From: an uncultured virus (IMG/VR IMGVR_UViG_3300042988_001938)
Lineage: Duplodnaviria > Heunggongvirae > Uroviricota > Caudoviricetes
Direction: 5' to 3' (one strand)
Length of the DNA stretch: 64,000 bases
Virus record (IMG/VR): IMGVR_UViG_3300042988_001938
Shown: positions 6,857-41,993 of the stretch, in pieces
Numbering within the stretch: the first letter of the stretch is position 1
Layout of the letters: the number at the start of each line of letters is the position of its first letter
The notes under the pieces: model-generated
The model's input: only the letters and a program-made list of their open reading frames with translations
What the model was told of the DNA's origin: nothing
Databases searched by the model: none
Made by a program: the position numbers and the translations under genes

Positions 6857-7207
6857 TCAAAAATCACGCATGAAATCATCCAACTCTTCTCTCAACTCCA
6901 ATTGGGTTGCAATCTTTTGCACTTCCTCAATGACAAACTTATCGCCATTAACAACTTCAAGTTTTAGGTAGGTCAAGACAATTGACTTTAGGCTTGCATT
7001 GTCAATCCCTGAAACGTAAACACCAAACCCACGAGAAAGGTAATGAGAACGCTTAAATCCTAATCCTACTGGGCGCAAGTCCTCTTCCTTTGCTCGTAGG
7101 CTCTCTCCATTCAGTTTCATTACTGAAACCTCATCATTCATCAATTTTCCTGACTGAATGGTAACCACTCCAAATCGTGGGTGCTGTCTGTAGTTTGTAA
7201 AATCCAT
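6857..7207 (-). CDS. hypothetical protein (leaderless)
   Basis: ATG 4 nt from motif 7212; stop is the second TGA of motif 6840. Confidence 0.8.
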   Translation of the reverse strand: MDFTNYRQHPRFGVVTIQSGKLMNDEVSVMKLNGESLRAKEEDLRPVGLGFKRSHYLSRGFGVYVSGIDNASLKSIVLTYLKLEVVNGDKFVIEEVQKIATQLELREELDDFMRDF

Positions 7208-7235
7208 GACTCTCTAACAATTGACTTCTCAAAAA

Positions 7236-7754
7236 TCACAGAAGAATTTCAGCAATTCTTTCAAACTCCTTGAAGGTGTCCTCCAGCGTTGTGTAAAACC
7301 CGTGTGGAATATTTCCACCATAGACCTTAAGAGTCTCGGTCATAAAGCTATCTTGCTTCTTGAACTCTGTGTATTTACCCTCTCTGAGAGAGTCAACGTT
7401 TTGATAAAAACTGAACTCCTCAACGTACAACACCTTGTTATTTTGGTTTTGGTGAACTCTTAGGAGCGACTTGCCAGCCTTAAGTCTTTCTTCAAGACCC
7501 TCCTTGCGTGAAATCTTAACATCAAAGAATACCTTAAGGTCGCCAGCCTTAGCAATCACTCTGTCTCGACTTCTGTTGGGACAAGCACCCCAATTGTGAC
7601 CAACACCAAGTTCAATCACAATTCCACGCTGGGTGTTAACTGCGTCTTTTAGTGTTGTCGGGCAAAGTTCAATCACTTGCGAAGCTGAAAAATAGCAAGT
7701 TGAGTCTGCTAAAATCTTTTGATTAATTTTTAGTCCATCCATCTTTAAAATCAT
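7236..7754 (-). CDS. hypothetical protein
   Basis: Stop in motif 7212. Confidence 0.8.
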   Translation of the reverse strand: MILKMDGLKINQKILADSTCYFSASQVIELCPTTLKDAVNTQRGIVIELGVGHNWGACPNRSRDRVIAKAGDLKVFFDVKISRKEGLEERLKAGKSLLRVHQNQNNKVLYVEEFSFYQNVDSLREGKYTEFKKQDSFMTETLKVYGGNIPHGFYTTLEDTFKEFERIAEILL

Positions 7755-7794
7755 TTAGTCCGACCATCTAACAACTCATCTCTCAAAAATCACA

Positions 7795-7820
7795 AACCCC
7801 AGGAAAATTCTCCTGGGGTC
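7795..7820 (-). terminator. intrinsic terminator hairpin whose T-tail merges into the motif
   Basis: ACCCCAGGA-N5-TCCTGGGGT then TTGTGATTTTT. Confidence 0.7.
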
Positions 7821-7832
7821 TGCTATAGGTTT

Positions 7833-8246
7833 TTAGAAACCTAAGTTCGTGTTGAGAACTTCAAAACCTTCTGCCTTTGCCTTCTCAACTTCTTTCTTGA
7901 GTTGCGCTAGGTGCGTCTTTTTCGCTTGTGCAATTGAAATCTTGAACTTCTGTGTGAAGTAGTTGCCATCCTTCTTCAAGACAAGAGCCTTGGTCTGTCT
8001 CTTTTGAACAATGTTCAACTCTTCCGCAAGACCCATAATTTCACAATCTGTGTCTAGGTTTGCGAGGTGCTGAATATCCTTCCAAGTTTTCCCTTCCGCT
8101 GGGTAATAGTCGTTGCTTCCACCCTTTCCACTATTTTTGACGTGTGCAACCAGTTTACCATCCTCATATAGGTCTGCAGAGAAACATGCTGTTTCTTCAC
8201 TCATGTCCTCATGAAACTTGAGGTTTTTTAAAGTTAATTTTCTCAT
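7833..8246 (-). CDS. hypothetical protein
   Basis: Downstream of motif 8267; SEET-x-CF-x-A...N-x-G-x-GG pattern. Confidence 0.8.
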   Translation of the reverse strand: MRKLTLKNLKFHEDMSEETACFSADLYEDGKLVAHVKNSGKGGSNDYYPAEGKTWKDIQHLANLDTDCEIMGLAEELNIVQKRQTKALVLKKDGNYFTQKFKISIAQAKKTHLAQLKKEVEKAKAEGFEVLNTNLGF

Positions 8247-8343
8247 TTTTTTGTTTTACGTTGAGCCTCTAACAACGCAAATCTCAAAAATCACAAAAAG
8301 AAAAGGAGAGCAAAAGCCCTCCAATCCTACGTGTAACCAAACA

Positions 8344-8526
8344 CTATTTTTTTCCATCCTTTGAGCCGTATTCAATGATGTTCTTCACTTGTTCTACGTT
8401 CTCAATCATGGTACGACCCCCAAACTCAATTTTCACCTTCATTAGCGAGTCGTATAGTTTCTTCTGTTCCTTGTTAAGCTCCTTGCCATTGGTTGTGAGC
8501 TTGTCAATCGCTTGGTTTATTGTCAT
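8344..8526 (-). CDS. hypothetical protein
   Basis: Preceded by a host-type TTG...TAACTTT promoter rather than the motif. Confidence 0.7.
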   Translation of the reverse strand: MTINQAIDKLTTNGKELNKEQKKLYDSLMKVKIEFGGRTMIENVEQVKNIIEYGSKDGKK

Positions 8527-8576
8527 AACTTTTCCTTTGTATAAAGTTATGAAAAAAAGCAGAATTTTTCAAGTTA

Positions 8577-9302
8577 TTATGTGTATTTGAGAATCATGTA
8601 GAACGAATTAATGTCCGCAATGTGCTTGTAGTGTGTAAATTCACCCTCCTCCTTGTAGCCGTAATGCTTAACCCCATCCTTTTCATCAGACTCAAAGCGC
8701 ATACGAATACTCATTATCAATTCACCACTCTTGTTGTAGAACAAAACCTCGTCAGCGGTCATCTTATTGACGTATTCGTTTTCGTTCTTGAAGTGCTCTT
8801 GCATCTTCTTGTGGAGAACCACTTTCCCCTCAAAAAGATTTCTACAATTTTTAACATCAAATGTAATCTTCTCGGCTTTTACCGTTTTCTTAACGGTGCG
8901 GAAGTTATCCATCTTTCCGTCTTTCCAATCCCACTTAAAGTCGTCTTCTTCCTTATCGTATTTTTCTTTGACAACATTGTAAACTATGTAGTCCTCTTGC
9001 TCCTTTAGTGCCTTCTTGGTTATGCGTTTCTCAATGCAATTCACAAAGCCTTGAATTCTCTTTTGGAACATACCCTTAACAAAAGCGTCATCGAACTGAG
9101 CGTATCCCATTAAGCACTGATAATTTGCTTCAGGGTATTCGGGTAAGTCGCACTGAAGAATTGCTTCAGGGAGCATGAAGTGAAATGCATAAGTATCACT
9201 TCTCTTTCCACCCTTTTCTTTCTTTTCTTCCTTAGCGGCTAAGTCCATGAAGTCCTTAAGGAATTTTTTTGTAAGTTCTTGAAGTTCTGTTGAAATTTCC
9301 AT
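8577..9302 (-). CDS. hypothetical protein (leaderless)
   Basis: ATG 4 nt from motif 9307. Confidence 0.85.
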   Translation of the reverse strand: MEISTELQELTKKFLKDFMDLAAKEEKKEKGGKRSDTYAFHFMLPEAILQCDLPEYPEANYQCLMGYAQFDDAFVKGMFQKRIQGFVNCIEKRITKKALKEQEDYIVYNVVKEKYDKEEDDFKWDWKDGKMDNFRTVKKTVKAEKITFDVKNCRNLFEGKVVLHKKMQEHFKNENEYVNKMTADEVLFYNKSGELIMSIRMRFESDEKDGVKHYGYKEEGEFTHYKHIADINSFYMILKYT

Positions 9303-9330
9303 ATCCCTCTAACAACTGGTTTCTCAAAAA

Positions 9331-9669
9331 TCACGCATGAATCATCATCACACGCTTGTCATTAATATGAATCCAGACATGGCTTCTGGTTCTTCCGCAT
9401 TCGTACTTTTCTCCAGAGTTCTTTGCGAAGTCAGAATTTACAAGCCCCTTGCAATCTAGGAGAAGCATTTCCAATAGAAAGTCATCTGGAGTCATTGTCT
9501 TAGCCATCTCTTGAGTTTCCTTATCACCCCATTTGCCTGAGCGGTTGTTCTCAATTGACTTCTTACCCTCTCGGTTCCAGAAGCTAACACAATCAATAAC
9601 CATGTTTGTAACATAGTCAGGCTTTCTGTCCTTAAGTTCGTTCTGAATTTGTAAATTAACTGCTTCCAT
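9331..9669 (-). CDS. hypothetical protein (leaderless)
   Basis: ATG 4 nt from motif 9674; stop in motif 9307. Confidence 0.8.
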   Translation of the reverse strand: MEAVNLQIQNELKDRKPDYVTNMVIDCVSFWNREGKKSIENNRSGKWGDKETQEMAKTMTPDDFLLEMLLLDCKGLVNSDFAKNSGEKYECGRTRSHVWIHINDKRVMMIHA

Positions 9670-9703
9670 ATTATTCTAACAATTGGTTTCTCAAAAATCA
9701 CAA

Positions 9704-9922
9704 TCAGTTAAGCATGGCAGACCAAAGAATGTTTCTCTTTCTCATCAAGACAATCAACTCTTGAGCCTTTGAGTTCTGTTCCTTTGTTATTACGTCCTTC
9801 GGAGTTCCATCGCTATTGAATAGTTCTGTCTTTAGGGAGAGTAGTCTTTTTGTTTCCTCGTGAGACATACCTGCTAGTCCGTCAATGATATGTTCGCCCT
9901 TAAGAAAAATTGGATTGTTCAT
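9704..9922 (-). CDS. hypothetical protein
   Basis: Between motifs 9944 and 9674. Confidence 0.75.
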   Translation of the reverse strand: MNNPIFLKGEHIIDGLAGMSHEETKRLLSLKTELFNSDGTPKDVITKEQNSKAQELIVLMRKRNILWSAMLN

Positions 9923-9974
9923 GTTGTTTGTTTTTGTTCAAAGCTCTAACAACCCAATTATCAAAAATCACAAA

Positions 9975-10308
9975 AACCCCAAGCCCTAAAAGGTTGAGGA
10001 GTTTTTGCTTTTTGTTCTTTTAATCAGTCCGAGAACACTTTTATCGGTCTTGCCGTTACCCGACCTTCGGAATCGCTCTAGGAGGATGCGCCCTTGTTGT
10101 CGCAACCACCATGGCATTGCGGACGGGTAAATCGGCTAATAATCATCTTTTTGGCGTTTATCTAGTGCTATCTCAACCCCGTAGCCACACGAGGTGCGCT
10201 GTTTTTGGAACAGTGGCTTGTCCCATTATCAGCACGTTCGCCATCTTAAGACTAATTAAAGAACTCTTTTGCAGTCACCGTAGCATAAGCCCAACATCTT
10301 GACCGCAA
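9975..10308 (-). ncRNA. large structured non-coding RNA candidate (~300 nt)
   Basis: GC-richer, no minus-strand ORF; long-range stem GTTCTTTAATTAGTC/GACTGATTAAAAGAAC encloses several helices; ECF-type promoter upstream, terminator hairpin downstream. Confidence 0.65.
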
Positions 10309-10312
10309 TTCT

Positions 10313-10341
10313 TTTTACGAAATTATTTAAAAAATGTTACA
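10313..10341 (-). promoter_or_regulatory. ECF-sigma-type promoter (TGTAACATTTTT...CGTAAAA)
   Basis: Same AAC...CGTA pattern at 18244, 31677, 35629, 41483, 41910 (minus) and 41945 (plus). Confidence 0.65.
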
Positions 10342-10349
10342 ATTTTCTC

Positions 10350-10523
10350 TTAACAATTTGGCAACCTTGCCCGTGCTTCTGGGCTGCTCAAGTATCCGTG
10401 GGCTACTCGGACTCGTTGAAGCACTATCTTCTGCCCATGACCCTGGAAGGTCATTCTCTCCGCCAACTTGCTTGCCTGCAAGACGACTATGAGAAGGAGT
10501 GCTGTTATCATTAGTGCTATCAT
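10350..10523 (-). CDS. small membrane-anchored hypothetical protein (57 aa, leaderless)
   Basis: MIALMITALLLIVVLQ...; ATG 4 nt from motif 10528. Confidence 0.6.
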   Translation of the reverse strand: MIALMITALLLIVVLQASKLAERMTFQGHGQKIVLQRVRVAHGYLSSPEARARLPNC

Positions 10524-10551
10524 GCTACTCTAACAATTTGTTTCTCAAAAA

Positions 10552-10698
10552 TCACAGAAGACCCAAGATTTTCTTCGCTTCCATCAAGACTTCCTCTTGC
10601 ATTTCAGCATCTGTCTTCTGCTTACGCTTTTCTCGCACCTTGTTAATGCGCTCTGCTTTTCTTTTTCTCTCAATGAGAAGTGTCTGTCTCTCGTTCAT
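10552..10698 (-). CDS. small basic hypothetical protein (48 aa, leaderless)
   Basis: MNERQTLLIERKRKAER...; ATG 4 nt from motif 10703, stop in motif 10528. Confidence 0.7.
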   Translation of the reverse strand: MNERQTLLIERKRKAERINKVREKRKQKTDAEMQEEVLMEAKKILGLL

Positions 10699-10863
10699 GT
10701 CTCTCTAACAATTGGTTTCTCAAAAATCACGAGGGGGCTTGTGTTCCCCTCGGCTTTCTCCTTTGTGAATATTACTTCTCTCCAAAGTAATATTCCATCA
10801 ATGCTACCTCTTTTTCGTACATGGTTCTCTTTTTATTTGTTCAACACTCTAACAACTCATTTC

Positions 10864-11277
10864 TCAAAAATCACAGCCTTCTCCACACTCGCAATATTCA
10901 GGACGAAGACCGCAAAAATCGCAATTTGCTACATGACAACCATGAGCCTCCCATGAGCCATCGAAATCGTCAACGTGATTCTTCATGGTTTCCACATCAG
11001 GAAATCCGAACTCTCGTGCTTTCTCAGGCAGAATAACGTTATGGTAGTACGCTGAATTAGCGGGTGAAATTCTCGTGGTGTTACAACGCTTACTTGGGTC
11101 AACGTTGTTCCAATAGTTGTCCTTACACTTCGTTCCTCCCTTACTCTTGCAAAATACGCTTTGGTAGGACTTCTTGACGTGGCTCGTTCCACATGAAGGA
11201 CAAACAATGGTATCCCCAACCTTTGCATCAAGACATTTCTGTCTTGCTTGAATTAGTTTTTGTTTGTTCTTGTTCAT
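10864..11277 (-). CDS. Cys-rich (zinc-ribbon-like) hypothetical protein
   Basis: CPSC, FC..C, CDFC..CEC; leaderless; stop in motif 10847. Confidence 0.8.
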   Translation of the reverse strand: MNKNKQKLIQARQKCLDAKVGDTIVCPSCGTSHVKKSYQSVFCKSKGGTKCKDNYWNNVDPSKRCNTTRISPANSAYYHNVILPEKAREFGFPDVETMKNHVDDFDGSWEAHGCHVANCDFCGLRPEYCECGEGCDF

Positions 11278-11291
11278 GAGACTCTAACAAC

Positions 11292-11600
11292 TCAATTCTC
11301 AAAAATCACAGACATAGTTATGCAATCAGTTTCATCATCATGCTCCTCCAAGTCTGCATACTCTTCAGAATTGTATTTAATCTTAATGCCTTTGCGCTGT
11401 TCCTCGGTCAATTCAGAAAGGAACTTTTTCTCTGCTTCCTTCCAAGAAAGCGTGCGTGGGTATGGAGACCATCTGTCAAAAATCCAAACACGCTCTTCAG
11501 CTTTAACTTGAATTGAGGTTAATGAGTTTTGTGTGTCATCCTCAAGAAAATAAATCTTGCCGAATACTTCAGTAATGTGTTGTCTGTCTTGTGTCGTCAT
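11292..11600 (-). CDS. hypothetical protein (leaderless)
   Basis: Reads into motif 11282 (VIFEN*). Confidence 0.75.
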   Translation of the reverse strand: MTTQDRQHITEVFGKIYFLEDDTQNSLTSIQVKAEERVWIFDRWSPYPRTLSWKEAEKKFLSELTEEQRKGIKIKYNSEEYADLEEHDDETDCITMSVIFEN

Positions 11601-11628
11601 ACCTCTCTAACAACCAAAATCTCAAAAA

Positions 11629-11970
11629 TCACAAGTACTTAACTTTGTCTTGCAATTTATTTAAGTAATAAGGGGTATTTAATTCTCTTGCATCTGAAAG
11701 GTGTACTTCATACTCTTCATCTGTTACAAAATAGTCACCACTCTCAGGCTCTAAGTCATCTTGAAGGCTATTTTCATTCCAATCCTCCATTTCCTCTCTT
11801 TGCGTTCCAGCGACCTCTGCAACAGTCCCACCAACTGAACTTACCCAGAATAAAAACTTTCCATGTGAGAACAAGTAGTGAATAGTGTTTTCAGCATCTT
11901 CAAATACATTTTTTTTGAAGAAACGAAACTGTTCCTTATCGTTAATGTCGAAACTCAACTTATTTTCCAT
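11629..11970 (-). CDS. hypothetical acidic protein (leaderless)
   Basis: ATG 4 nt from motif 11975; stop in motif 11605. Confidence 0.8.
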   Translation of the reverse strand: MENKLSFDINDKEQFRFFKKNVFEDAENTIHYLFSHGKFLFWVSSVGGTVAEVAGTQREEMEDWNENSLQDDLEPESGDYFVTDEEYEVHLSDARELNTPYYLNKLQDKVKYL

Positions 11971-12159
11971 GGAACTCTAACAACCAGAATCTCAAAAATC
12001 ACAACTTCGTTGTTCGTGCCGAAGCAAATCAAAAAGAGGGATACTCCTGTATCCCTCAATCTGGTAACGTAAAACAACAAACAAAAATCTTTATTCTTCT
12101 GGGTGCCTGTCTGGCTTCAGAACCAGCATCTCATCTTCAGGTCATCCCTTGTATCCTAG

Positions 12160-12233
12160 TACTCCCATCAGGATTCGAACCTGAGACCTACTGCTTAGAA
12201 GGCAGTTGCTCTATCCAGCTGAGCTATGGGAGC
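12160..12233 (-). tRNA. tRNA-Arg(UCU)
   Basis: GCTCCCA/TGGGAGT acceptor, D-arm AGCTCAGCTGGATAGAGC, ACTGC-CTTCTAA-GCAGT anticodon arm, GGTTCGAATCC; no encoded CCA; motif 12242 lies 8 nt upstream. Confidence 0.95.
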
Positions 12234-12265
12234 TTATATATTTCTAACAACTGATTTCTCAAAAA

Positions 12266-12529
12266 TCACACTTTCACCAAGTAACAAGAGAAATCAATGT
12301 CATTTTCTGCAGAAGTCTTAGCCATTGATTTTTCTACATCGTATCCAAACGAGGTAATTAACGACTTGAATTTTTCAAACTGAGTCTTCGTAAGAAACAC
12401 AACTGCATTGTGAAAAATGCCATCTGTACGACCACCCATTGTGTCACCTCGCATGGCGGAGAACAAAAACAAAGCATTGTTCTTTAATCCCACCTTGATA
12501 ATTTCCTGTTTATTTGCTGAATTCTTCAT
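12266..12529 (-). CDS. hypothetical protein (leaderless)
   Basis: ATG 4 nt from motif 12534; stop in motif 12242. Confidence 0.8.
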   Translation of the reverse strand: MKNSANKQEIIKVGLKNNALFLFSAMRGDTMGGRTDGIFHNAVVFLTKTQFEKFKSLITSFGYDVEKSMAKTSAENDIDFSCYLVKV

Positions 12530-12557
12530 GATACTCTAACAACTGATTTTTCAAAAA

Positions 12558-12791
12558 TCACAAAGTCTTTCTTCTCAATTGGTAAACTCTCATTTTTAAA
12601 CTTGAGACTGCACCTTCAATAGTTGAGCCTTGACCATGACAATTTGAGAATTCTCCACCCAATAAAGTTGTGCTATAAAGACCTGTGAAAACATCACGAC
12701 TAAATGAAAACTTCATTGTTCCACCTCCAACTCCTAATAGGGGAGTGGAGTAAATTCCATTAGGGCTTTCGCAAGTAATAATAGTTTCCAT
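12558..12791 (-). CDS. hypothetical protein
   Basis: Stop in motif 12534. Confidence 0.75.
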   Translation of the reverse strand: METIITCESPNGIYSTPLLGVGGGTMKFSFSRDVFTGLYSTTLLGGEFSNCHGQGSTIEGAVSSLKMRVYQLRRKTL

Positions 12792-12837
12792 GTCTGTTTG
12801 TTTAATTACAACACTCTAACAACTCAGTTCTCAAAAA

Positions 12838-13053
12838 TCACAAGGGAGAATTGGCTGCATCAATTCCACGCTGGAACGCTGCATCTGAAAAACCTGACAA
12901 AGACTCGCAAAGTTCTGCAATGTCTTGCTCATAGTATCCAGCAAAGAAGCAAACGTCAACAATTCTTTCGAACAAGGGAGACCCCTCTGGATTCTGAATG
13001 GGGTAGTGCTTCTTAACCACCTCCGCAACTGATTCTTTATCAATGTGTGCCAT
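12838..13053 (-). CDS. hypothetical protein
   Basis: Stop in motif 12814. Confidence 0.7.
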   Translation of the reverse strand: MAHIDKESVAEVVKKHYPIQNPEGSPLFERIVDVCFFAGYYEQDIAELCESLSGFSDAAFQRGIDAANSPL

Positions 13054-13238
13054 ATCTTATTTTTAAAGAGGGGAAAGTCAAACCATCATCTGTATTCAAT
13101 CAAATCCAAGTGATGATGAGGTTCTTGGCAACCATTTTAATGACTTCCCCCATTACTCTAACAACCCAAATATCAAAAATCACAAGAAAGGGAGAGGCAA
13201 TGCCCCTCCCAAACTCTGTAAACAAACAACTAACTTCT

Positions 13239-13856
13239 TTAGTAGTTTTGCACTTGTCGTAATCTGTATTTATCTGTGTATCTACCTCCGTTGTAGGCAT
13301 CACAACAAACTCCGCAAGCGTGCTTTACTCTAGTAGCTTTTTTGTGGCGAGGCGTTTCCTTGCCGCAATTATCACAAATCAATGTGTATTTTGTAGTCTT
13401 TTTTTCTGTCGGCTCTCCACCTATCGGAACACATCTTTCTGCTATTGAAAGGACTTGTGTTGCAATATTCTTCCACTTATAACTATGGTCGCTAAATCCT
13501 CTTATCTCAAAGTCAATAGCGTGTGCAATCTCGTGTCGAATAGTGTTCTCAAATCTCCACGCCTTGTCTAAGTGTTGCTCAAGGTACCAAGTAGAAACAT
13601 AAATGGTTTTCTTTCTTCCAGAGCAAAGTCCAAGAGCCGTTTTTCTTGTATTAAACTCAAAGTGCCATCCAAGGTCAATTAAGTTAAACTCCTTGCGTGT
13701 GAAACTGTTAATGTCAATCGTCCAAGTTGAATTCAGCAATTGAATTGCCAACTGCTTTATCTCCTCCTTTGTTGTGCTTTGCTCTCTATTGAAGAATAAC
13801 TTTTTTGTCAAGTCCTCGAATAGTGCATCGAATTTTGGGTCTTTGATAAGTTTCAT
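13239..13856 (-). CDS. SprT-family zinc metalloprotease-domain protein
   Basis: R..LGLC, HEIAHA, H...WK, C-terminal CxxC...CxxC. Confidence 0.85.
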   Translation of the reverse strand: MKLIKDPKFDALFEDLTKKLFFNREQSTTKEEIKQLAIQLLNSTWTIDINSFTRKEFNLIDLGWHFEFNTRKTALGLCSGRKKTIYVSTWYLEQHLDKAWRFENTIRHEIAHAIDFEIRGFSDHSYKWKNIATQVLSIAERCVPIGGEPTEKKTTKYTLICDNCGKETPRHKKATRVKHACGVCCDAYNGGRYTDKYRLRQVQNY

Positions 13857-13905
13857 GTCGTGTTGTTTATCTGTTACAATACTCTAACAACTGATTTCTC
13901 AAAAA

Positions 13906-14100
13906 TCACAACTCCCAATTATGTGCTTCGCAAATTACAATTGCATCTTCAATCTTGTACGTTTCATCGTAGTGCTTCAAGTTTGTTACCCACATTCTTG
14001 CACTCACCTTACCGAAGTACTTGTCAAAAAACTCTCTCTTTTCAACTGAAAGGTTATCTAAAATATCTTGCTCTTTCTTTGTTAAATTTGGCTTGTCCAT
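13906..14100 (-). CDS. hypothetical protein
   Basis: ATG (MDKPNL) downstream of motif 14125; stop in motif 13882. Confidence 0.7.
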   Translation of the reverse strand: MDKPNLTKKEQDILDNLSVEKREFFDKYFGKVSARMWVTNLKHYDETYKIEDAIVICEAHNWEL

Positions 14101-17050: not shown

Positions 17051-17145
17051 ATTATTCTAACAACCCACTTCTCAAAAATCACAACTTCTATTTTTTTAGA
17101 AATAAAGGGAGAGTTCTGTGATTTTTGAAATTCCAGTTGTTAGAG

Positions 17146-18085: not shown

Positions 18086-18449
18086 GTCTATCGTTTTTTG
18101 TTTGTTACACTACTCTAACAACTGACTTCTCAAAAATCACAAGTTTTTAAGAAATTCTGAAAAAACTTTAAGTTTTTTCTTGTTATACTATTCTAACAAC
18201 TGACTTCTCAAAAATCACAAGACTTTCAAAAAGCTTTAAGCTTTTTTACGTAAGAAACGAAAAAATGTTACAAACAAAAGTTTATCGCAGGTCTGGATTA
18301 CCCTTGCGCTTTCTGTTTCACTAGCGGGCTTACACTACTCTAACAACCCAATTCTCAAAAATCACAAGATTTTTTTTTATTTATTTTTGACTAATGTTGT
18401 GATTTTTGAGATGATAATTGTTAGTATTATGTAACCAAACAACAAAACA

Positions 18450-18623
18450 ATGACAAAGAAAATGAAAATATCAAGAGAGCAAATTCTGACAATGGAGCGA
18501 GCAATTCGCAGACAAGAAGAAATTGACGCTCGCCCGCTTGGTGGCTTCGCTGCAACGCACAAAGTCCACAAGAGCAAGAAGGCATACAACCGCAAGGAAA
18601 AGCACAAGGGGAGAGAATTTTAG
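18450..18623 (+). CDS. small basic protein, ArfA-like C-terminal motif (57 aa, not in ORF track)
   Basis: MTKKMKISREQ...HKVHKSKKAYNRKEKHKGREF; inverted motif 18398 plus GTAACCAAACAACAAAACA leader. Confidence 0.65.
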   Translation: MTKKMKISREQILTMERAIRRQEEIDARPLGGFAATHKVHKSKKAYNRKEKHKGREF

Positions 18624-19170
18624 CCCTTGTCGCCTATTTAAGGGGTCTAATGGATTAGCACCCTATACGACCCCCCTAGGGCTTAAATAAGGGGTCTATT
18701 TAGGCTCGCTCGGATAATAAGCCCCCTAAATACCAACCCCCCTGAGGAGGGTCCAGGACCGCTCACAAAATTTTCCCCAATTTTTTCCAAAATTTCTCAA
18801 CCAACGAATTCATATAGCCCCCAGAGGTTATAACACACAGTTAAAGCTCACAGGCGTTATAATTCTGGCTCAAAATTCTCAACCAATGAGCTACAAATAA
18901 AAAGAGGGGTACCCCAAAAAAGAGAGGGGGGGGTCGAAAAGTGCATCTGAAAAAATTTTTTCCCAAAAAAAAATAGTCAAAAATCTGGACCCTATTAACC
19001 ATCGGAATGACCAACGGAATTTTTACTAGAGAGTCTTGATGAATCCCTTACTGGGCGTGGTCTACAGAAGATTTACAACGAACGGAATTTTTTTTCTATC
19101 AACTAAGAAATAAGTTGACTCATCAAGCCATTCACTTACTTTTTTTTATTGGTGTAGTTATAATAAAAAT
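18624..19170. other. non-coding junction with G/C and A/T homopolymer tracts and short direct repeats (candidate origin / terminal-repeat boundary / pac region)
   Basis: taaggggtcta x2, ttctcaaccaa x2, cggaat x3, long runs; no ORF; marks the end of the motif array. Confidence 0.4.
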
Positions 19171-30544: not shown

Positions 30545-30702
30545 CTGCAGTGCTTGTTATTAATTGATTTTATCCTTTCCTCTATAGATTGCATAAGTCG
30601 GTCAACTATGTTGTTCATAACTATCAATTTCCTTCTAATGCTTACTCTATCATTTTTGGAATCAATAACTTTAATCAACTTATCATATCGACCATCAATC
30701 AT
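30541..30702 (-). CDS. HC-tail family small protein (53 aa, not in track)
   Basis: MIDGRYDK...IKSINNKHCR; ATGA overlap with the next gene; TATCTTTG box upstream. Confidence 0.6.
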   Translation of the reverse strand: MIDGRYDKLIKVIDSKNDRVSIRRKLIVMNNIVDRLMQSIEERIKSINNKHCR

Positions 30703-31062
30703 TTTACAAAGATATTAATAATTAACGTTTTGCGCAAGAAATTTTGACTATTTATATCCAAACTTAAAAATGAGCGAAGATGGATAAGGAATTTGATGAT
30801 TATGATTGGTTTCCAGACCATGGATTATAACAAAAAACCCCATATCTTTCAACACGGGGTTTTTCAATAGCAACCGATGCACTGTAACACCAGTTTCAAC
30901 CAAATATAACATTAAAAGCACGACAGAATTATGCCTCTCTAAAATTATAAAATCTATAAAGTAAAATAAAGGTAAAAATAGAAAAAGCCACCCCCGCAGG
31001 AGAGTGGCTTTTTCTGTTGAACCAATAAAAAGAGACTGAGCCTCTAAGTTATTATCTTTTAG

Positions 31063-31404
31063 TTAGTCCCAGATACCAGAGCCCTTGCTCGTGTTATCTG
31101 ATTGACTGCTATTTTTTTCGTCCCTTAAGGCTGAGTTTACAACATCATTCGTCTTGTTATAGACAAACTTTGCTCCATTCATGGCCTGGTCATACATCTT
31201 GGCAATTGTGCTGTTCATTTTGTCATTCACATCTTGTATCTTCTGACCAAGATACTTAAGACCACCCTTTTCAACCTCTTCGTGAAAGAAATTTGCGAGT
31301 TTTGCCTGTTCATCAATCTCAAGAGTTGAGAACATTACCTTAATGAACTCAATCTTTTCTTCTTTGGAGAGTTCTTTTTTTGCTTCGTTGTTTACCTCAG
31401 ACAT
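31063..31404 (-). CDS. hypothetical protein
   Basis: Followed by hairpin terminator at about 30981-31014. Confidence 0.75.
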   Translation of the reverse strand: MSEVNNEAKKELSKEEKIEFIKVMFSTLEIDEQAKLANFFHEEVEKGGLKYLGQKIQDVNDKMNSTIAKMYDQAMNGAKFVYNKTNDVVNSALRDEKNSSQSDNTSKGSGIWD

Positions 31405-33942: not shown

Positions 33943-34473
33943 TCAGGATTCCTTATTAAAGTTGTTGATTATGTCGATGATGCCATTAAGAGCCTCAAGA
34001 GTTCCAGCTCTTGACTGTAGCAGCTTATCGGTCATAGCTTGTCTGTGATTTGCATCTGGAGTACTTCGTATCTTATTCTCAAATTCAAAATACTCCTTAA
34101 GAATGATAATCTTGTCCTCAATTGAAGTAATTGGATTTTCACCAAATGCAACAGATAAGTAACTCACGAGATTGCTCTTGAAGTCTTCAGACATTTGAAA
34201 CTCCTCCATTCCATCCTTGAGGTTTTTATTATGAAGGAGCTTATAGTATTGATTATACACAGTCTCGATGTCAGATGGTGTGCTGGCTATATCAAGCGAG
34301 TTAGCAATCTTTTCCTTATCATCTTGAGTGAGGTGAAATTCACTCATAAGCCTGGTTGAATATCCAAGCTTGAGGTTGATTAACTCTAGTTGTTTCTTCT
34401 CCTCTGATAAAGTATAATTTTGAAGCTCAAGCTCTTTAATCCTTAATTGTTCTGGTGTCTCTCTATTTTCCAT
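33943..34473 (-). CDS. hypothetical protein resembling the prohead scaffold C-terminal domain
   Basis: N.KL.Y...L.....LT...K..I...LD.A....I..VY pattern. Confidence 0.5.
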   Translation of the reverse strand: MENRETPEQLRIKELELQNYTLSEEKKQLELINLKLGYSTRLMSEFHLTQDDKEKIANSLDIASTPSDIETVYNQYYKLLHNKNLKDGMEEFQMSEDFKSNLVSYLSVAFGENPITSIEDKIIILKEYFEFENKIRSTPDANHRQAMTDKLLQSRAGTLEALNGIIDIINNFNKES

Positions 34474-35606
34474 TATTCCGATATTTCATATTTAACTGCA
34501 TACGATTCTGTCTGGTCTGGAACGTCAAGACTCCAAATCATATCTTCTACAGCTTTTTCTGGTACCTTGTACTCTCTATTACTATTCTGGCTCAAAAGTT
34601 TCTTGTAGGGCACTTCTAAGTAAATAACAACAACTTTTGCTCCGTACTCCTCGAACTCCTTGATTACCTTTCCACGCATATCCTTTGTGATATTTGTAGC
34701 ATTAAAGACAAAATCCCTCTTAGCTCTCATATGAGTTTTGCATATGTCCTTAATTTCTTGGTAAACTTGACCTTCTGCCTTGGAGTCACCTCGCTTAACC
34801 TTTCTTTCCCTTCTGAGTTCGTCAATTGATACCATTGGGATATTACTAAGGTTATTCTTAATGTAAGTATCTTTTCCAGAGCCAGGAAGAGCGCACATGA
34901 CATATGCTGTAAAGTTCTTTTCATCAAAAGGCTCATAGCCAGGCCAGCCATCTTCATTCTTGAAGAAGTATCTTCTACCAAGCTCTGATTTAAACTCTCT
35001 CTTATTTCCTAGGCATTCATTGACACTGCATGCCCACTCAAACATTTCAACCCTAGCCATCATGTCACCAGAGTCCTCAGCAATTCTGCCTAGAATATCT
35101 GCCTTAGCAAATAATGCGAGCATCTTTGTGTCAAGCTTCCAACTAAGTTCTGTTACAAACTTTTCTAGGTTTTCTCTATCCATAGCCCAGATTGGTGCTC
35201 CATGGTGTCTTACGAGCTTGCAAATATGCTCTCTTATGTGGAATGGAGTTGGAATTTCTTTATACAAGATAACCCTTGAAGTTTTCTCACCCTTCTTTGC
35301 ATGATTCTTAGATGTAATTCTTAGTTGACCGTCAATTTCCTCATACTCTGTAGTAGAGCGTTTTTCAACATCGTGCAGCATTGCTGTAGCAAACAAGATG
35401 TGCTTATCTTGCTCTGATAGGGCCTGGAAGTCTGGGTGTGAGACAAGTGCTTCAGCGACCATTTTTGTATGGATAAAGACATCCCCTTCAGCATGCCAAA
35501 TCGCATCCTGCTCGACACCTTTCATATCTCGGAACCATTCAAACTCACTTTCAAGCTTGTCCCAAGGTATAGGTTGTCCAACTTCATAATGAGGGAACTT
35601 CCACAT
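34473..35606 (-). CDS. HD-domain phosphohydrolase fused to P-loop (polynucleotide-kinase-like) kinase
   Basis: HAEGDVFIHT, LHDVEK, ADILGR; ALPGSGKDT P-loop, FNATN. Confidence 0.88.
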   Translation of the reverse strand: MWKFPHYEVGQPIPWDKLESEFEWFRDMKGVEQDAIWHAEGDVFIHTKMVAEALVSHPDFQALSEQDKHILFATAMLHDVEKRSTTEYEEIDGQLRITSKNHAKKGEKTSRVILYKEIPTPFHIREHICKLVRHHGAPIWAMDRENLEKFVTELSWKLDTKMLALFAKADILGRIAEDSGDMMARVEMFEWACSVNECLGNKREFKSELGRRYFFKNEDGWPGYEPFDEKNFTAYVMCALPGSGKDTYIKNNLSNIPMVSIDELRRERKVKRGDSKAEGQVYQEIKDICKTHMRAKRDFVFNATNITKDMRGKVIKEFEEYGAKVVVIYLEVPYKKLLSQNSNREYKVPEKAVEDMIWSLDVPDQTESYAVKYEISE

Positions 35607-35653
35607 ACAATTAATGTTTATTATGATATTATACGTAATATGATAGAAAAATG

Positions 35654-35821
35654 TTACTTATTTTTCTTTGAATTATTACCTTTGCTATATGGACAATTTT
35701 TGCAACCACCTCCGCAACAATAACCTCTCTTAAGTAGATACGCCTCAGTAAAAACTCTAAATTTTATACCGTTTACTTCTTCCCAGTAGTAATCAATTCC
35801 TTCGATGAGCTGCTTGTCCAT
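35654..35821 (-). CDS. small Cys-rich protein (DUF5522-like, 55 aa, not in track)
   Basis: VFTEAYLLKRGYCCGGGCKNCPY. Confidence 0.75.
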   Translation of the reverse strand: MDKQLIEGIDYYWEEVNGIKFRVFTEAYLLKRGYCCGGGCKNCPYSKGNNSKKNK

Positions 35822-35822
35822 A

Positions 35823-36224
35823 TTATTCTTGAAACTCTATTTTTTCTTCGACATAATGCCCAGGTGTAACTGTGCCCTCTATACTCTTAATTAGTTTCAA
35901 TTCTTTTTTTCCATTTTCATTTCTTGAAATTCCGTAAATTTCTTTCCAAACACGGTCAACATTAGCTCTTGGTGGCCAAACCGCAAGAGTTGTGTATGGA
36001 TTTGGTGCTTGCCTCTTAACTATTTCTATGAAATTTCCATCATGAGTTTCAAGAAAATTAAAGCTTTCAATTTTCACTAGGTTTTGATTATAGAATAATG
36101 AGTCAACTAACGATGAACCAATTGATGTTGTCGATGAACCATCATTTAACGAAGTACCATCAGTAATTGTGTAGCTAAACTCCCCTATTGTTGAGGTGGA
36201 TTTGTTTAAATTTTCTTCTGCCAT
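35823..36224 (-). CDS. hypothetical protein
   Basis: ORF track. Confidence 0.7.
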   Translation of the reverse strand: MAEENLNKSTSTIGEFSYTITDGTSLNDGSSTTSIGSSLVDSLFYNQNLVKIESFNFLETHDGNFIEIVKRQAPNPYTTLAVWPPRANVDRVWKEIYGISRNENGKKELKLIKSIEGTVTPGHYVEEKIEFQE

Positions 36225-36303
36225 GTCTTCAAAATTTTATGCAATATAGCTATAATATTTTACAATATCAATTGTTTTTTTCTATTTATGAAAAAGTGCT
36301 TTT

Positions 36304-36558
36304 ATGGAGGGAATAGTTAAGAAAATCGTGAGGGAAGAATTCGAGAGTGTTTTGTCAAAAACATACTCTGAAGATGAAATTAGAGAAGCTATTAACAAAA
36401 AGCACTTTATTCATACAAAAGACGGCTCAGTTTATTCTCCAGTGATTCTTAAGAGGGGCTTTGTATTAGGTGTAAACAATGATTGTCAACACGTTGATAT
36501 ACCTCTTGAAGAGATAACGTTGGTCCAAAGCAGGGAAGGAAGATTTGGAATTAAATAA
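36304..36558 (+). CDS. putative virion head-associated protein
   Basis: N-terminal IVKKIVREEF; CTATTTAT upstream. Confidence 0.6.
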   Translation: MEGIVKKIVREEFESVLSKTYSEDEIREAINKKHFIHTKDGSVYSPVILKRGFVLGVNNDCQHVDIPLEEITLVQSREGRFGIK

Positions 36559-36660
36559 AAGTCAAAAAAATCTTTGATTTTTTTGACTTATTTTCACTAA
36601 AAACATTAGTGTTTATAAATTAAGGGCTCTATTTATAATAGAATTTACAGGATAAACAGC

Positions 36661-36951
36661 ATGTCAAAGGTAGATAAAAAAGTAAGATTTATAAAAGCGT
36701 GGTACATTAAGGAGTGTGCTAATCTTGACTTTAGCGATAGGCTAAAGCTTGCCAGAGTATGGATTGAAATCTGCCTGAAAGACGAAGAGTATGAAATGGC
36801 AGCAGCCATAAGGGAAGAGAAGAGAAACATAGTTAAAAAACACATAAAAGAAAAGAGAAGCCAAAGAAGCTTCTCTCAAAGGTTTGTAATATTTATGTTT
36901 CTTCTTAAGAGAAGGATTTCTTCTCTATTCAAAAGTAAGCAATCAAAGTAG
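36661..36951 (+). CDS. hypothetical protein with UVR-like motif
   Basis: EEYEMAAAIRE; CTATTTATA upstream. Confidence 0.65.
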   Translation: MSKVDKKVRFIKAWYIKECANLDFSDRLKLARVWIEICLKDEEYEMAAAIREEKRNIVKKHIKEKRSQRSFSQRFVIFMFLLKRRISSLFKSKQSK

Positions 36952-37264
36952 TTTTCTTAAGAGCTTGAGCCTTGTCAAGCGAGTCCTTTGTGCCCTTGCT
37001 GGACCCATCCCAAAATACCACAACCATATCACAATTTTCTATGATTGTTGTATTTCTGAGGAAACCAGCCTTCTTTCCAAATAGGTCCCACTGAGGAACA
37101 TAAATCTCTTTTTGTAGGCCTTTTTCATTGGCGTATTTCTCACCGAGAGAATCTGCACCTCTTGCACCTCCAGAAACTATAACAGTAATTGGATATAGGT
37201 CAAGAATTCTCTTGACCCTATTGTAGTCATCGAAGTTTCTTGAGCCAATTACTGCTACTTTCAT
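36929..37264 (-). CDS. SLOG-family (YspA/DUF2493-like) nucleotide-binding protein
   Basis: VIGSRNF, VSGGARGAD, AGFLRN, FWDGSSKGT. Confidence 0.85.
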   Translation of the reverse strand: MKVAVIGSRNFDDYNRVKRILDLYPITVIVSGGARGADSLGEKYANEKGLQKEIYVPQWDLFGKKAGFLRNTTIIENCDMVVVFWDGSSKGTKDSLDKAQALKKTTLIAYF

Positions 37265-37476
37265 TAGAATGCAATTATGAAGGCCCAGCAAATTAAGGCT
37301 ATAATAAAGAATTTTATAGGCTGAAAAGTTCGTTTAATACCTTTTAGTTTATCAAGAGTCTCTTGAATTGAGCCAGGATATTTTAAAGATGCGTTAAGTG
37401 CTACAAGACCAAGGATAGAACAAAAAACTGCAACTGGCCACGCAATTATGTGAAGGAAAAAAATCAGATTATCCAT
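37264..37476 (-). CDS. small membrane protein
   Basis: Two hydrophobic helices. Confidence 0.65.
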   Translation of the reverse strand: MDNLIFFLHIIAWPVAVFCSILGLVALNASLKYPGSIQETLDKLKGIKRTFQPIKFFIIALICWAFIIAF

Positions 37477-37682
37477 TATATTTTATTTAGTAGTGAATGT
37501 CCAAACCTCATCCAGGAAGACATCCCTTTGTCTCCCTGAAAATATTCAGTATTGCTATCTGCTCTAACAAACATAAGTAGTCCAACAATAGAGCAAGCTA
37601 AACAAAGACTTATCAGCATCCAGATTATTAGCAATAATCCAATTCCAATTTTAGCCATTTGTTCTGTATTTTGAAGAGTCAA
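37476..37682 (-). CDS. small membrane protein
   Basis: Hydrophobic N-terminal half. Confidence 0.6.
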   Translation of the reverse strand: MTLQNTEQMAKIGIGLLLIIWMLISLCLACSIVGLLMFVRADSNTEYFQGDKGMSSWMRFGHSLLNKI

Positions 37683-38526
37683 ACACTGGAATTGTTTCCA
37701 TCTTGTGTTTATTTGAAGAGTTAAATCTTCTGTATATTTTCAAAACCTCTATTTGACGCTCTGTAAGTGTTTGGTCATCGCTATCTACGTAGTAAGCTCC
37801 AACACCTTGCTCAACGTTTGTGTGGTCTTCAATCCAGTTCATTGCCCACTCAAGCTCATCGTATGTAGCTCCAATTTGGTCCTCATCAGTTCTTCCATCT
37901 GCATGAAGCCCGTCTGTTGGGGCTGCAGTAAGGATGTCATTTCCAACTCCAAGCTCTGCTCCAAGTGCATAAACTTCTGACTTCATTAAATCACCGATTG
38001 GAGAGATGTCAACACCACCATCACCGTACTTGGTATAGAATCCAATTCCGAAGTCCTCAACCTTGTTTCCAGTTCCAGCAACAAGCATTCGATACATTCC
38101 AGCGTGTTGGTAAAGGGTGACCATTCTAAGGCGTGAACGTGTATTTGCCATAGAGAAGTCATAATCCTCTTGCATAATCTGCCTTCCAAATGGTGGCTCT
38201 CCCTTAGAAAAATCCTCATATAGGATGTCATATGCATCTGTAAGGTCAATTTCTTTTGACTCTACATTTGGAAAACTTGCTTTAAGCCACTTAATGTGGT
38301 TCTTGGCTCTTGTAACCTGGTCTTGACCTTGGTGAATTGGCATTTCTAAAATTAGAAGTGGTAATCCTGTGCGTGCACATAGGGTCGAAACAACGGCAGA
38401 GTCAATACCGCCAGATACACCCATCACAAAACCTCTTTGCCCAGATTTTTGAGCGTATTCCTTAAGCCAACTAGAGATTCCATTAGCAAGTTCTGTGTAA
38501 TTTAAAGTTTTAACAACTGTTTCCAT
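37651..38526 (-). CDS. nadE: NH3-dependent NAD+ synthetase
   Basis: GVSGGIDSA, NTRSRLRM, GTGNKVE, FYTKYGDG, PTDGL; ATG start METVVK. Confidence 0.95.
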   Translation of the reverse strand: METVVKTLNYTELANGISSWLKEYAQKSGQRGFVMGVSGGIDSAVVSTLCARTGLPLLILEMPIHQGQDQVTRAKNHIKWLKASFPNVESKEIDLTDAYDILYEDFSKGEPPFGRQIMQEDYDFSMANTRSRLRMVTLYQHAGMYRMLVAGTGNKVEDFGIGFYTKYGDGGVDISPIGDLMKSEVYALGAELGVGNDILTAAPTDGLHADGRTDEDQIGATYDELEWAMNWIEDHTNVEQGVGAYYVDSDDQTLTERQIEVLKIYRRFNSSNKHKMETIPVFDSSKYRTNG

Positions 38527-38530
38527 TTTC

Positions 38531-39151
38531 TTAATTATTAAAGAGATTGTTTTTCTTAATGTGTTCGATGACCTTATCTGGAACCAAGAATCTAAATGAT
38601 AGATTGTTCTTGATACATTTTCTGATATATGTAGCAGATACATCAACCTGAGGCACATCTGTTAGATAGATAGATACTGAGTGAGCCTTTTCTGTTAGCT
38701 CCCACTTCTTATCCTTTTCAGATAGTGTTCGAGGATATACGATTATGTCGTGATTATCCAACACTTCTTCACTTTTCTTCCAATAGTTTCCCATTTTTCT
38801 CTGGGTATCAGTTCCAGCTACAATTGAAAAATGGGTATCTGGATTCTGATTTCTAAGTAAGCGCAAGGTATCTGCTGTGTATGATGGTCTTGGCATATTA
38901 AACTCCGCATCACATACAAAGAACCCATCTCTACCCTCAATTGCAATCTTAGCCATCTCAAGCCTGTGATTTGCATCCTCAAGCTCACCAGTCTTTCTCT
39001 TTGCTGGGTTTTCTGGAGATACGACAAACCAAATTTCATCAATATCTGTCTGAGATAGAGCTGTCTCGGCAACAATCAAGTGACCAACGTGAATTGGATT
39101 GAATGAACCGAAAAACAATCCAACTTTTTTATTCAGAAGCTTCATTTGCAT
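38531..39151 (-). CDS. nadD: nicotinate-nucleotide adenylyltransferase
   Basis: FFGSFNPIHVGH, VSPENP, PSYTADTL, VSATYIR. Confidence 0.95.
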   Translation of the reverse strand: MQMKLLNKKVGLFFGSFNPIHVGHLIVAETALSQTDIDEIWFVVSPENPAKRKTGELEDANHRLEMAKIAIEGRDGFFVCDAEFNMPRPSYTADTLRLLRNQNPDTHFSIVAGTDTQRKMGNYWKKSEEVLDNHDIIVYPRTLSEKDKKWELTEKAHSVSIYLTDVPQVDVSATYIRKCIKNNLSFRFLVPDKVIEHIKKNNLFNN

Positions 39152-39791
39152 CGCTATTCATTTTTTCCATTAATTCCTGGTAGTACTTAAGACCCATTTC
39201 AACTCTGTCACCATTTCTTAAGTGCCAAAGAGCATTTGCTCCAATAATTGTCTTAGCATCAACTATTTCACCACTTCCAAACATCTTAAAGAATTCTGGA
39301 GCCTTAATATTGTGAATCTCAATGTTTTCGTGCTCACCTTCAACACCGCCACCATTAGAAACTTTATCTTCATTTGATACACTGGCAGCGAATAGATGAA
39401 TAATCTCCGTTGAATATCCTGGAGAAGCAAAGAAGCTACTTCTGTATAGAAGGTTTTCTCCTTTGATTCGGTATCCAATTTCCTCCTCAACTTCACGGAT
39501 TGCGGTTTGATTTGGCTCCTCTCCTTCATCCATTTTCCCAGCAACGATTTCGTATATGTCACCATTAACCTTACCCAGTGTTGGGTATCTGTGTTGCTTA
39601 ACTAGAATTACTGTATCTTCATCTGAATTGTAAACGATTACAGCTACAGCATTTGGTCGCACAACTTTTGAGCGTTGAAAAGATGCCTCTTCTCCATTTT
39701 CACCTATTTCTTTAACTACAGCTTCATCTATTTTGATGTAACCGTCATAAACTCTTTTTTCAGAGGCTATTTCAATTTTCACTTTGCTCAT
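39129..39791 (-). CDS. Nudix hydrolase (ADP-ribose pyrophosphatase-like)
   Basis: Nudix box AGKMDEGEEPNQTAIREVEEEIGY, SPG, E.E.I, DAKT. Confidence 0.9.
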   Translation of the reverse strand: MSKVKIEIASEKRVYDGYIKIDEAVVKEIGENGEEASFQRSKVVRPNAVAVIVYNSDEDTVILVKQHRYPTLGKVNGDIYEIVAGKMDEGEEPNQTAIREVEEEIGYRIKGENLLYRSSFFASPGYSTEIIHLFAASVSNEDKVSNGGGVEGEHENIEIHNIKAPEFFKMFGSGEIVDAKTIIGANALWHLRNGDRVEMGLKYYQELMEKMNSDANEASE

Positions 39792-40197
39792 GTTCTAATC
39801 TTTGTTTAATTTCTTCTTCAATTTCTAATTTAGCTCCAACACCAAGCGGTCTCTTATTACCCTCATCGTCTATTCGGACAAATATTACTTTTGTCTGGCA
39901 AACAAGTTTTTCCTCTTTGGTGTAAACGTTGTATTTTCTTGCCTCCATCTTAAGAACTATGGATGTATTTCCAATACTCTCAACTTCACCGTAAATCCAT
40001 ACTTGTTGATTTTCCTTAACCTTTCGTACAAACTTAATAGTTTCTATCTCAGCTGTAACCATTTTGTTTGATTGACATAGACGTGTAGCTTCAATCGCTG
40101 CGGCCTTATCAAGCCATGACATCATAGCCCCTCCAAATAAGTTTCCATGTACTCCAAGGTCTTTTGCTAAACACAATTCTCTAGTTATAAGTTTCAT
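39772..40197 (-). CDS. hotdog-fold acyl-CoA thioesterase
   Basis: HGNLFGG.MM.W.D.AA, VTA, GNTS. Confidence 0.88.
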   Translation of the reverse strand: MKLITRELCLAKDLGVHGNLFGGAMMSWLDKAAAIEATRLCQSNKMVTAEIETIKFVRKVKENQQVWIYGEVESIGNTSIVLKMEARKYNVYTKEEKLVCQTKVIFVRIDDEGNKRPLGVGAKLEIEEEIKQRLEHEQSEN

Positions 40198-40229
40198 TTG
40201 CTGCTATATTTACAGCAAATTTATATACT

Positions 40230-41459: not shown

Positions 41460-41482
41460 GGTAAAAATTTACTTACACCTTC

Positions 41483-41511
41483 TTATACGACAAACACTAA
41501 AAAATGTTTCA
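41483..41511 (-). promoter_or_regulatory. ECF-type promoter of the pncB operon
   Basis: TGAAACATTTTT...GTCGTATAA. Confidence 0.65.
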
Positions 41512-41521
41512 GACAGTAGAA

Positions 41522-41893
41522 TTAAATTTCTAAATAGAAATCCTTGTAGAAATATCGTGTACCATCGCTGTACCACCCACCACCTTCGCTTATCTTGCAG
41601 TTCTCACTTCTCAATTTAATGCCAGATTCATTAAGAATATCATTAAGACTTTTGCACCCAATATATCTAATCTCCATCCCTCTGGATAGAGCTTGTTCGT
41701 TTCTCTTATTATCAAGCATGTATGGGTGTTCGATTTGTCCGTCAAAAATTTTAGACATATGTGCCACCCCTCTTATAAAGCTCTTAATTCGCTTGTTATC
41801 TGCAGGTAATTTTAACTTATACTCCTTGCTTGTCTCTAAGCTAAAGTCTTTTGCAATCTCGGTTACAAAGTCTATATATGACAACTCTTTCAT
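41522..41893 (-). CDS. hypothetical protein
   Basis: ECF-type promoter 41910-41938 upstream. Confidence 0.75.
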   Translation of the reverse strand: MKELSYIDFVTEIAKDFSLETSKEYKLKLPADNKRIKSFIRGVAHMSKIFDGQIEHPYMLDNKRNEQALSRGMEIRYIGCKSLNDILNESGIKLRSENCKISEGGGWYSDGTRYFYKDFYLEI

Positions 41894-41993
41894 TAGAAGA
41901 TTTTAAAACTTATACGAACAAAGAAAAAAAATGTTTACTTGGTGTTAAACATTTTTGTATTTTTGACGTAAAATATAATATTTATATACAAAT

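Follow-up and report, generated by a model that had tools for sequence, protein, structure and literature searches.

The minus strand of a 64-kb stretch of uncultured phage DNA (64,000 nucleotides, analysed as a whole and referred to here as the window) probably carries, among small early genes, a stand-alone gene for a structured non-coding RNA (ncRNA) of about 295 nt, which would be the only member so far of a new family. The predicted RNA (10308..10014) would fold into a 5' hairpin followed by a multibranched domain, the latter held together by a stem of 15-16 bp, and its primary transcript would be approximately 325-335 nt long with the terminator included. The original prediction for this locus had proposed a multibranched RNA of about 300 nt with a promoter of its own, and all the sequence elements that it listed are present on the minus strand at the positions it had assigned to them.

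The window derives from a large, uncultivated tailed freshwater phage. Besides a baseplate-like protein, a cREC_REC protein and an HD plus AAA_33 kinase, it encodes a set of metabolic genes (NAPRTase, NAD synthase, nucleotidyltransferase, NUDIX, thymidylate synthase, adenylate kinase and CCA-adding enzyme), as found by a protein-family scan of 76 ORFs of the 64-kb window. An RNA-repair and NAD-salvage cluster was observed at 34473-43848, comprising the HD plus AAA_33 kinase, NAD synthase, a cytidylyltransferase-like protein, NUDIX, a thioesterase, NAPRTase, cREC_REC and the CCA-adding enzyme. The host is probably a member of the Bacteroidota, because Por_Secre_tail and DUF4494 matches were found among the window ORFs, because the A/C-rich leaders lack a Shine-Dalgarno sequence, because a TTTG...TATATTTG promoter, which would be of the Bacteroidota type, is present in the related contig L031 and repeated in G001 (one IMG/VR relative, a 434-kb record with terminal repeats found via a neighbouring ORF), and because of the habitat, the sequencing runs being labelled freshwater, aquatic and freshwater sediment. 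Pieces identical to the window were found in four public runs from four studies; the pieces lying on the RNA all had the window sequence, and none of the contigs spanned the whole RNA. Similarity of GenBank phages to window positions 7000-14000 was limited to tRNA-Arg(TCT), and the best match to the adenylate kinase was only 35%, in a Marinimicrobia MAG. The relatives are mosaic at the RNA locus: in L031, homologues of ORFs 10552-10698 and 8344-8526 flank a different gene, while another contig (L046) starts within a 40% homologue of ORF 9704-9922.

The leftmost 18.4 kb of the window form a minus-strand array of small genes, almost each with a 30-nt element upstream. This early promoter element, TGTGATTTTTGAGA-N7-TTGTTAGAG, has 47 minus-strand copies by a strict regular expression, and TTGTTAGAG with at most one mismatch was counted 68 times against 25.8 expected, a number reached by none of 100 shuffles. 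Two opposite-facing copies are located at approximately 17117-17145 and 18397-18445. The spacing from the element to an ATG is exactly 4 nt in 17 of the 47 units, suggesting leaderless or near-leaderless mRNAs, while in others TGTAAC and an A/C-rich leader intervene. One copy lies 8 nt before tRNA-Arg(TCT) (12159-12233, minus strand), the sole tRNA or tmRNA gene found in the window by ARAGORN and 1.9 kb away from the RNA; the element is therefore a transcription signal and not a ribosome-binding site. Its layout is neither that of sigma-70 promoters nor that of the Bacteroidota sigma-A, and it may serve a phage polymerase or factor. The pattern had no occurrence in IMG/VR; the 85 metagenome loci in which it was found delineate a clade of related phages. 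Two early units on the minus strand, 15466-15380 and 18338-18273, are without an ORF and may encode small RNAs with lengths of about 87 and 66 nt, although their folds are not more stable than those of shuffled sequences (z −0.43 and −0.19). A non-coding stretch of approximately 600 nt (18600-19170), next to the divergent early promoters at ~18400, has unusual G-runs and C-runs; it may be an origin, a packaging region or one end of the genome.

Within this array, the RNA is located between a 57-aa ORF with a hydrophobic N-terminus (10523-10350, minus strand), which has a full early promoter at about 10565-10528, and the next early promoter (9973-9944, minus strand), which follows directly after the terminator-like hairpin and drives a 72-aa ORF (9704-9922). 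The 379 nt from the 57-aa ORF to this promoter hold no ORF longer than 43 aa and constitute the largest ORF-poor remainder among the 47 early promoter units, for which the median is 8 nt. In the gene-strand frames of 9975-10349 the longest stop-to-stop opening is 49 codons under table 11, and recoding with TAG as Q or TGA as W, tried as an alternative, opened no sensible frame of the order of a gene. The 43-aa ORF (9986-10117) starts with ATG, is basic and is a possible small protein, which we count against an ncRNA gene. Above-background G+C content had been noted in the original prediction and was confirmed, with 0.465-0.485 for the RNA stretch versus 0.35-0.42 for most neighbours.

The promoter is the best-supported part of the finding. 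Promoters of ECF sigma factors combine an AAC-type −35 element with a −10 element CGT at a distance of about 16-17 nt, and the sequence before the RNA (10341-10313, minus strand) consists of TGTAAC as the −35 element, a 16-nt spacer and CGTAAAA as the −10 region, a TGTAAC-N16-CGTA arrangement that we take to be an ECF sigma promoter layout. The motif GTAACA-N14-17-CGTAWAA has three matches in the window compared to an expectation of 0.00, namely the site before the RNA, one at the head of the early cluster (18271-18244) and one before the HD/kinase gene 34473-35606 (35657-35629). Related contigs contain six distinct sites; two of these are orthologues of the site at 18271, and one precedes a tRNA by 40 nt. 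The pattern TGTAACATT-N12-15-CGTAWAA is present at 129 or more IMG/VR loci; among the matches listed, 84 of 132 have the 13-nt gap used here (24, 13 and 11 have the other three gaps), and among the matches listed an ORF of at least 40 aa lies within 150 nt in 75 of 84, a raw count without a chance baseline. Five IMG/VR records with several copies were checked, and each has a 188-243-aa ORF in which Sigma70_r4_2 scores above the cut-off; moreover, an IMG/VR promoter (L112 and L143) is identical to that of the RNA at 26 of 29 positions. The claim that the RNA has its own ECF-type promoter is thus borne out by a motif that recurs in the window, in its relatives and in IMG/VR phages with sigma genes of ECF size. 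Transcription would start at ~10309 (± 3), about 7 nt after the −10 motif and at the base of the 5' hairpin. The RNA polymerase would use an ECF-like sigma factor, most likely one encoded by the phage.

Several observations on the promoter count against an ncRNA gene. The −10 region CGTAAAA is a minority form in a class that mostly has CGTATAA, TGTAAC also follows many early promoters, and no sigma factor domain was detected among the scanned ORFs of the window. In addition, the TGTAAC of the RNA is preceded by one decayed half of an early promoter (TTGTTAAGAG), which overlaps the stop codon of the 57-aa ORF. As a class, tTGTAACATT-N13-CGTATAA is widespread in IMG/VR phages (L092-L220, at least 129 loci), with several copies per genome. 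Directly after the promoter at 18271, a small hairpin and U-run (AAAAAGCUUAAAGCUUUUU) were observed at 18244-18205; this arrangement is kept in two related contigs (L016 and L019) and may serve as an attenuator or to stabilize the 5' end.

Folding of the minus strand at 10308..10014 yielded a minimum free energy (MFE) of −96.5 kcal/mol (z −3.70) and none of 200 dinucleotide shuffles folded as well, whereas the plus-strand complement reached −76.5 (z −1.02) and 34 of 200 shuffles did as well or better. This strand asymmetry favours a constraint at the RNA level over a fortuitous fold. The RNA was also compared to 38 arbitrary 295-nt segments of the early region on the gene strand (mean z −0.76, sd 0.97, minimum −2.73) and fell outside all 38, with a z of −3.4 in the script used for this background. 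The better z-scores rest on boundaries fitted to the structure, and in a cruder GC-regressed scan of 638 fixed segments the segment 10001-10300 ranked 86, which counts against an ncRNA gene. Overall, the thermodynamic signal is real but moderate and partly boundary-dependent. The strongest outlier of the GC-regressed scan was found at 30801-31100 (z −4.0); the surrounding minus-strand region 30600-31200 is intergenic and has two hairpin and U-run terminators.

The 5' hairpin (10308-10269) has a 9-bp stem, UUGCGGUCA/UGACUGCAA, and a structured top, appears in both the MFE and the centroid structure, and has pair probabilities of 0.72-1.0. The closing stem is formed by 10264-10249 (5' arm) and 10029-10014 (3' arm), is seen in the MFE structure as well as in the pair probabilities (15-16 bp, P ~1 over most pairs), and contains a U-G pair where the opposite strand would have an A-C mismatch. 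The 3' branch domain (10136-10052) is closed by the helices GCCG/CGGC (P 0.97-1.0) and UUACCCG/CGGGUAA (P 0.69-1.0), and its inner pairing is uncertain. The helix map of the original prediction thus holds for these four elements; UGGCG/CGCCA is reduced to P ~0.3, and GUGCU/AGCAC, AGCCAC/GUGGCU and CGCAA/UUGCG have P ~0, which likewise counts against an ncRNA gene. For the 5' branch (10235-10176) the energy model gives instead two adjacent local hairpins in the MFE structure, 10235-10196 and 10195-10176, together with a different pairing inside the 3' domain. The full helix set as first drawn has −57.0 kcal/mol versus −96.5 for the MFE; five of its nine helices have P ≥ 0.7 over most pairs and three of the nine are not favoured by the energy model, and the details of its inner 5' branch are probably incorrect.

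At the 3' end, a terminator had been predicted, and a terminator-like element is present at 9999-9972 (minus strand), where a nine-pair hairpin with a bulge and G-U pairs (9999-9977, −9 kcal/mol, z −0.73) is followed by UUUUU. An element that is 98% identical over 51 nt, again a hairpin and U-run, follows a protein gene in a related contig (L012). However, the hairpin at 9999-9972 is weak and is omitted by the consensus terminator scan, both of which were counted against an ncRNA gene. Transcription of the RNA would end here. In L012, a hairpin of about 75 nt (GATAAGGTA...TACCTTATC; 1745-1670, minus strand) was observed after a gene and just before the next early promoter.

No known family accounts for the RNA. 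With Rfam 15, the whole window gave only the tRNA-Arg at the gathering score, and 9600-10700 and 10000-10320 gave only chance-level snoRNA and lncRNA matches of 12-21 bits at E ≤ 10; the models covered 6S RNA, group I/II introns, GOLLD and ROOL, among others. ARAGORN detected no tRNA-like or tmRNA domain in the RNA stretch and, in agreement with the original prediction, Rfam 15 and ARAGORN gave no RNase P, tmRNA or SRP signal. The search for homologues returned none in GenBank phages and plasmids, IMG/VR or related contigs, a result that we count against an ncRNA gene. It comprised blastn in distant mode against GenBank phages and plasmids, exact 26-mer and 20-mer scans of IMG/VR, and blastn and nhmmer against 90 loci (263 kb, chiefly related metagenome contigs) and against the 129 IMG/VR loci with the ECF-type motif. 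A covariance model built from the single sequence plus its MFE structure (R1) found no homologue in 86 sources (312 kb) and the 434-kb record G001, a set that lies apart from the 129 IMG/VR loci; a DNA search of G001 gave only chance matches of 14-17 nt, and no paralogue of the RNA was found in the window. When the gap was compared by tblastx with 219 related or promoter-bearing loci, the only matches were to the promoter and the terminator. Word searches within an open-access part of the literature returned no description of the RNA or of either promoter motif.

Several of these observations would also be expected if the stretch were a structured 3' UTR or spacer of the 57-aa early gene, an explanation that we consider unlikely. 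It would then be an mRNA tail only, functioning as a stability element, terminator or insulator without a function in trans, and the promoter-like motif would be unused. Neither the sequence nor the consensus scan has a terminator between the stop codon of the 57-aa ORF (10350) and the RNA, and the RNA could thus also arise as a 3' UTR of that gene; the TGTAAC stands behind the decayed half early promoter at the stop codon, in the position that it takes after many functional early promoters; the −10 element is of the minority form; and the fold statistics of fixed segments are only moderate. Against it, the 379 nt are far above the 8-nt median of the other 46 units, the motif GTAACA-N15-CGTAAAA has a window expectation of 0.00 and the 26/29 identity to an IMG/VR phage promoter, and the predicted start coincides with the base of the 5' hairpin. 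Also in the case of a stand-alone gene, the RNA is probably read through by early transcription from the 57-aa gene upstream.

An improbable alternative is that the stretch is a decayed gene remnant or encodes small peptides, with a fortuitous fold. Candidates would be the 43-aa ORF and three peptides of 13-23 aa starting from AAGATG, since AAGAUG is present three times in the RNA; moreover, remnants are plausible in an early region that is mosaic between relatives, and the searches gave the RNA no supporting conservation. However, some 6-mer reaches three copies in 22% of shuffles, none of these ORFs has the promoter-plus-leader geometry of the 47 early units, and the 43-aa ORF starts in a helix of P ~1 and crosses the closing stem and the terminator. 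The tblastx matches, confined to the terminator and promoter, and the strand asymmetry of the fold also argue against a coding origin. It is very improbable that the RNA acts in cis as a leader, either by modifying the polymerase for processive antitermination, as the put RNA of phage HK022 does, or as an attenuator, deciding on passage of the 9999-9972 terminator into the downstream early genes. The order of promoter, structured RNA, terminator and genes is consistent with such a leader, as is the ECF-type promoter at 18271, which is likewise followed by a hairpin, a U-run and early genes, also in L016 and L019. ORF 9704-9922 nevertheless has its own full early promoter at 9973-9944, as do all later genes, no riboswitch, T-box or leader family was matched in Rfam, and the size and branching of the RNA are far beyond those of put RNAs.

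As the product of a stand-alone gene, the RNA would be stable and would act in trans, as a protein-binding scaffold or decoy and not by antisense pairing or cis regulation. Complementarity to window transcripts was at chance level (6 complementary 11-mers compared to 10 expected, and no 12-mers), and antisense action within the window was accordingly rejected. The repeated AAGAUG and GAUAA were considered as protein-binding motifs and discarded, as they are not significant when any k-mer is allowed for. A trans-acting scaffold or decoy is favoured, with low confidence, because complementarity is not in excess, because no repeated motif reaches significance and because the downstream gene has its own promoter. 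The sole contextual hint comes from the promoter class, to which the promoters of a tRNA in a relative and of the RNA-repair-type kinase in the window also belong. A more far-reaching proposal, and an unlikely one, is that the RNA is the founding member of a new class of phage ncRNAs of about 300 nt, expressed in a phage ECF-sigma regulon with tRNA and RNA-repair genes and forming an RNA-only or RNA-protein particle that serves as a decoy or scaffold in an RNA-level conflict between a large phage of Bacteroidota and its host, e.g. by soaking up a host nuclease or an RNA-binding defence protein.

Large structured RNAs outside the classic families are rare, and several of the known large RNAs, such as GOLLD and ROOL, are linked to phages and still without a function. 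If real, the RNA gene described here is a compact and well-delimited transcription unit that is open to synthesis and direct probing. Its analysis also exposed two transcription signals, the early promoter with 47 copies and the ECF-type class common to many IMG/VR phages, which together provide a handle for finding further such RNA genes in uncultivated phages.

Compared to known systems, the RNA resembles the msr-msd of retrons in that hairpins lie inside a main domain whose ends are clamped by inverted repeats like a1/a2 (10264-10249 and 10029-10014, P ~1). It differs in that a terminator-like hairpin and a new promoter follow downstream instead of a reverse transcriptase, and a retron was rejected as no RVT family was present among the 76 ORFs scanned, including 9704-9922 and 9331-9669. 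A T-box or riboswitch was likewise rejected, with no family match and a downstream ORF (9704-9922) that has its own promoter. The guide RNAs of dCas12f-sigmaE systems in Bacteroidota are described as 85-105 nt long and encoded immediately downstream of dcas12f (PMC13472631); they share with the RNA the link between an ECF sigma factor and a structured RNA in Bacteroidota, and differ in size from its ~295 nt. With no Cas, TnpB or IscB among the 76 ORFs and with ORFs of 57 and 72 aa as neighbours, a Cas12f, TnpB or IscB guide RNA was also discarded.

YrlA and other bacterial Y RNA-like RNAs work with RNA repair proteins, and the window encodes a CCA-adding enzyme, a cREC_REC protein and the HD plus AAA_33 kinase, the last sharing the promoter class of the RNA; however, there was no Y RNA-like match in Rfam, no tRNA-like module by ARAGORN, and no Ro/TROVE or RtcB among the 76 ORFs. 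The pRNA of phi29 is the product of an ncRNA gene in the early region of a phage, with its own promoter and a compact multi-helix fold. The RNA shares an early-region phage gene, its own promoter and a multi-helix fold with it, but has no pRNA match in Rfam, is about 120 nt longer, and belongs to a large tailed phage with a baseplate-like gene. GOLLD and ROOL are large ornate RNAs with Rfam families of their own, often carried by phages or prophages near tRNA genes. Although it has no Rfam match at E ≤ 10 and is about half their size or less, the RNA would resemble them as a phage-encoded, large, multibranched and stand-alone ncRNA, with a tRNA gene 1.9 kb away.
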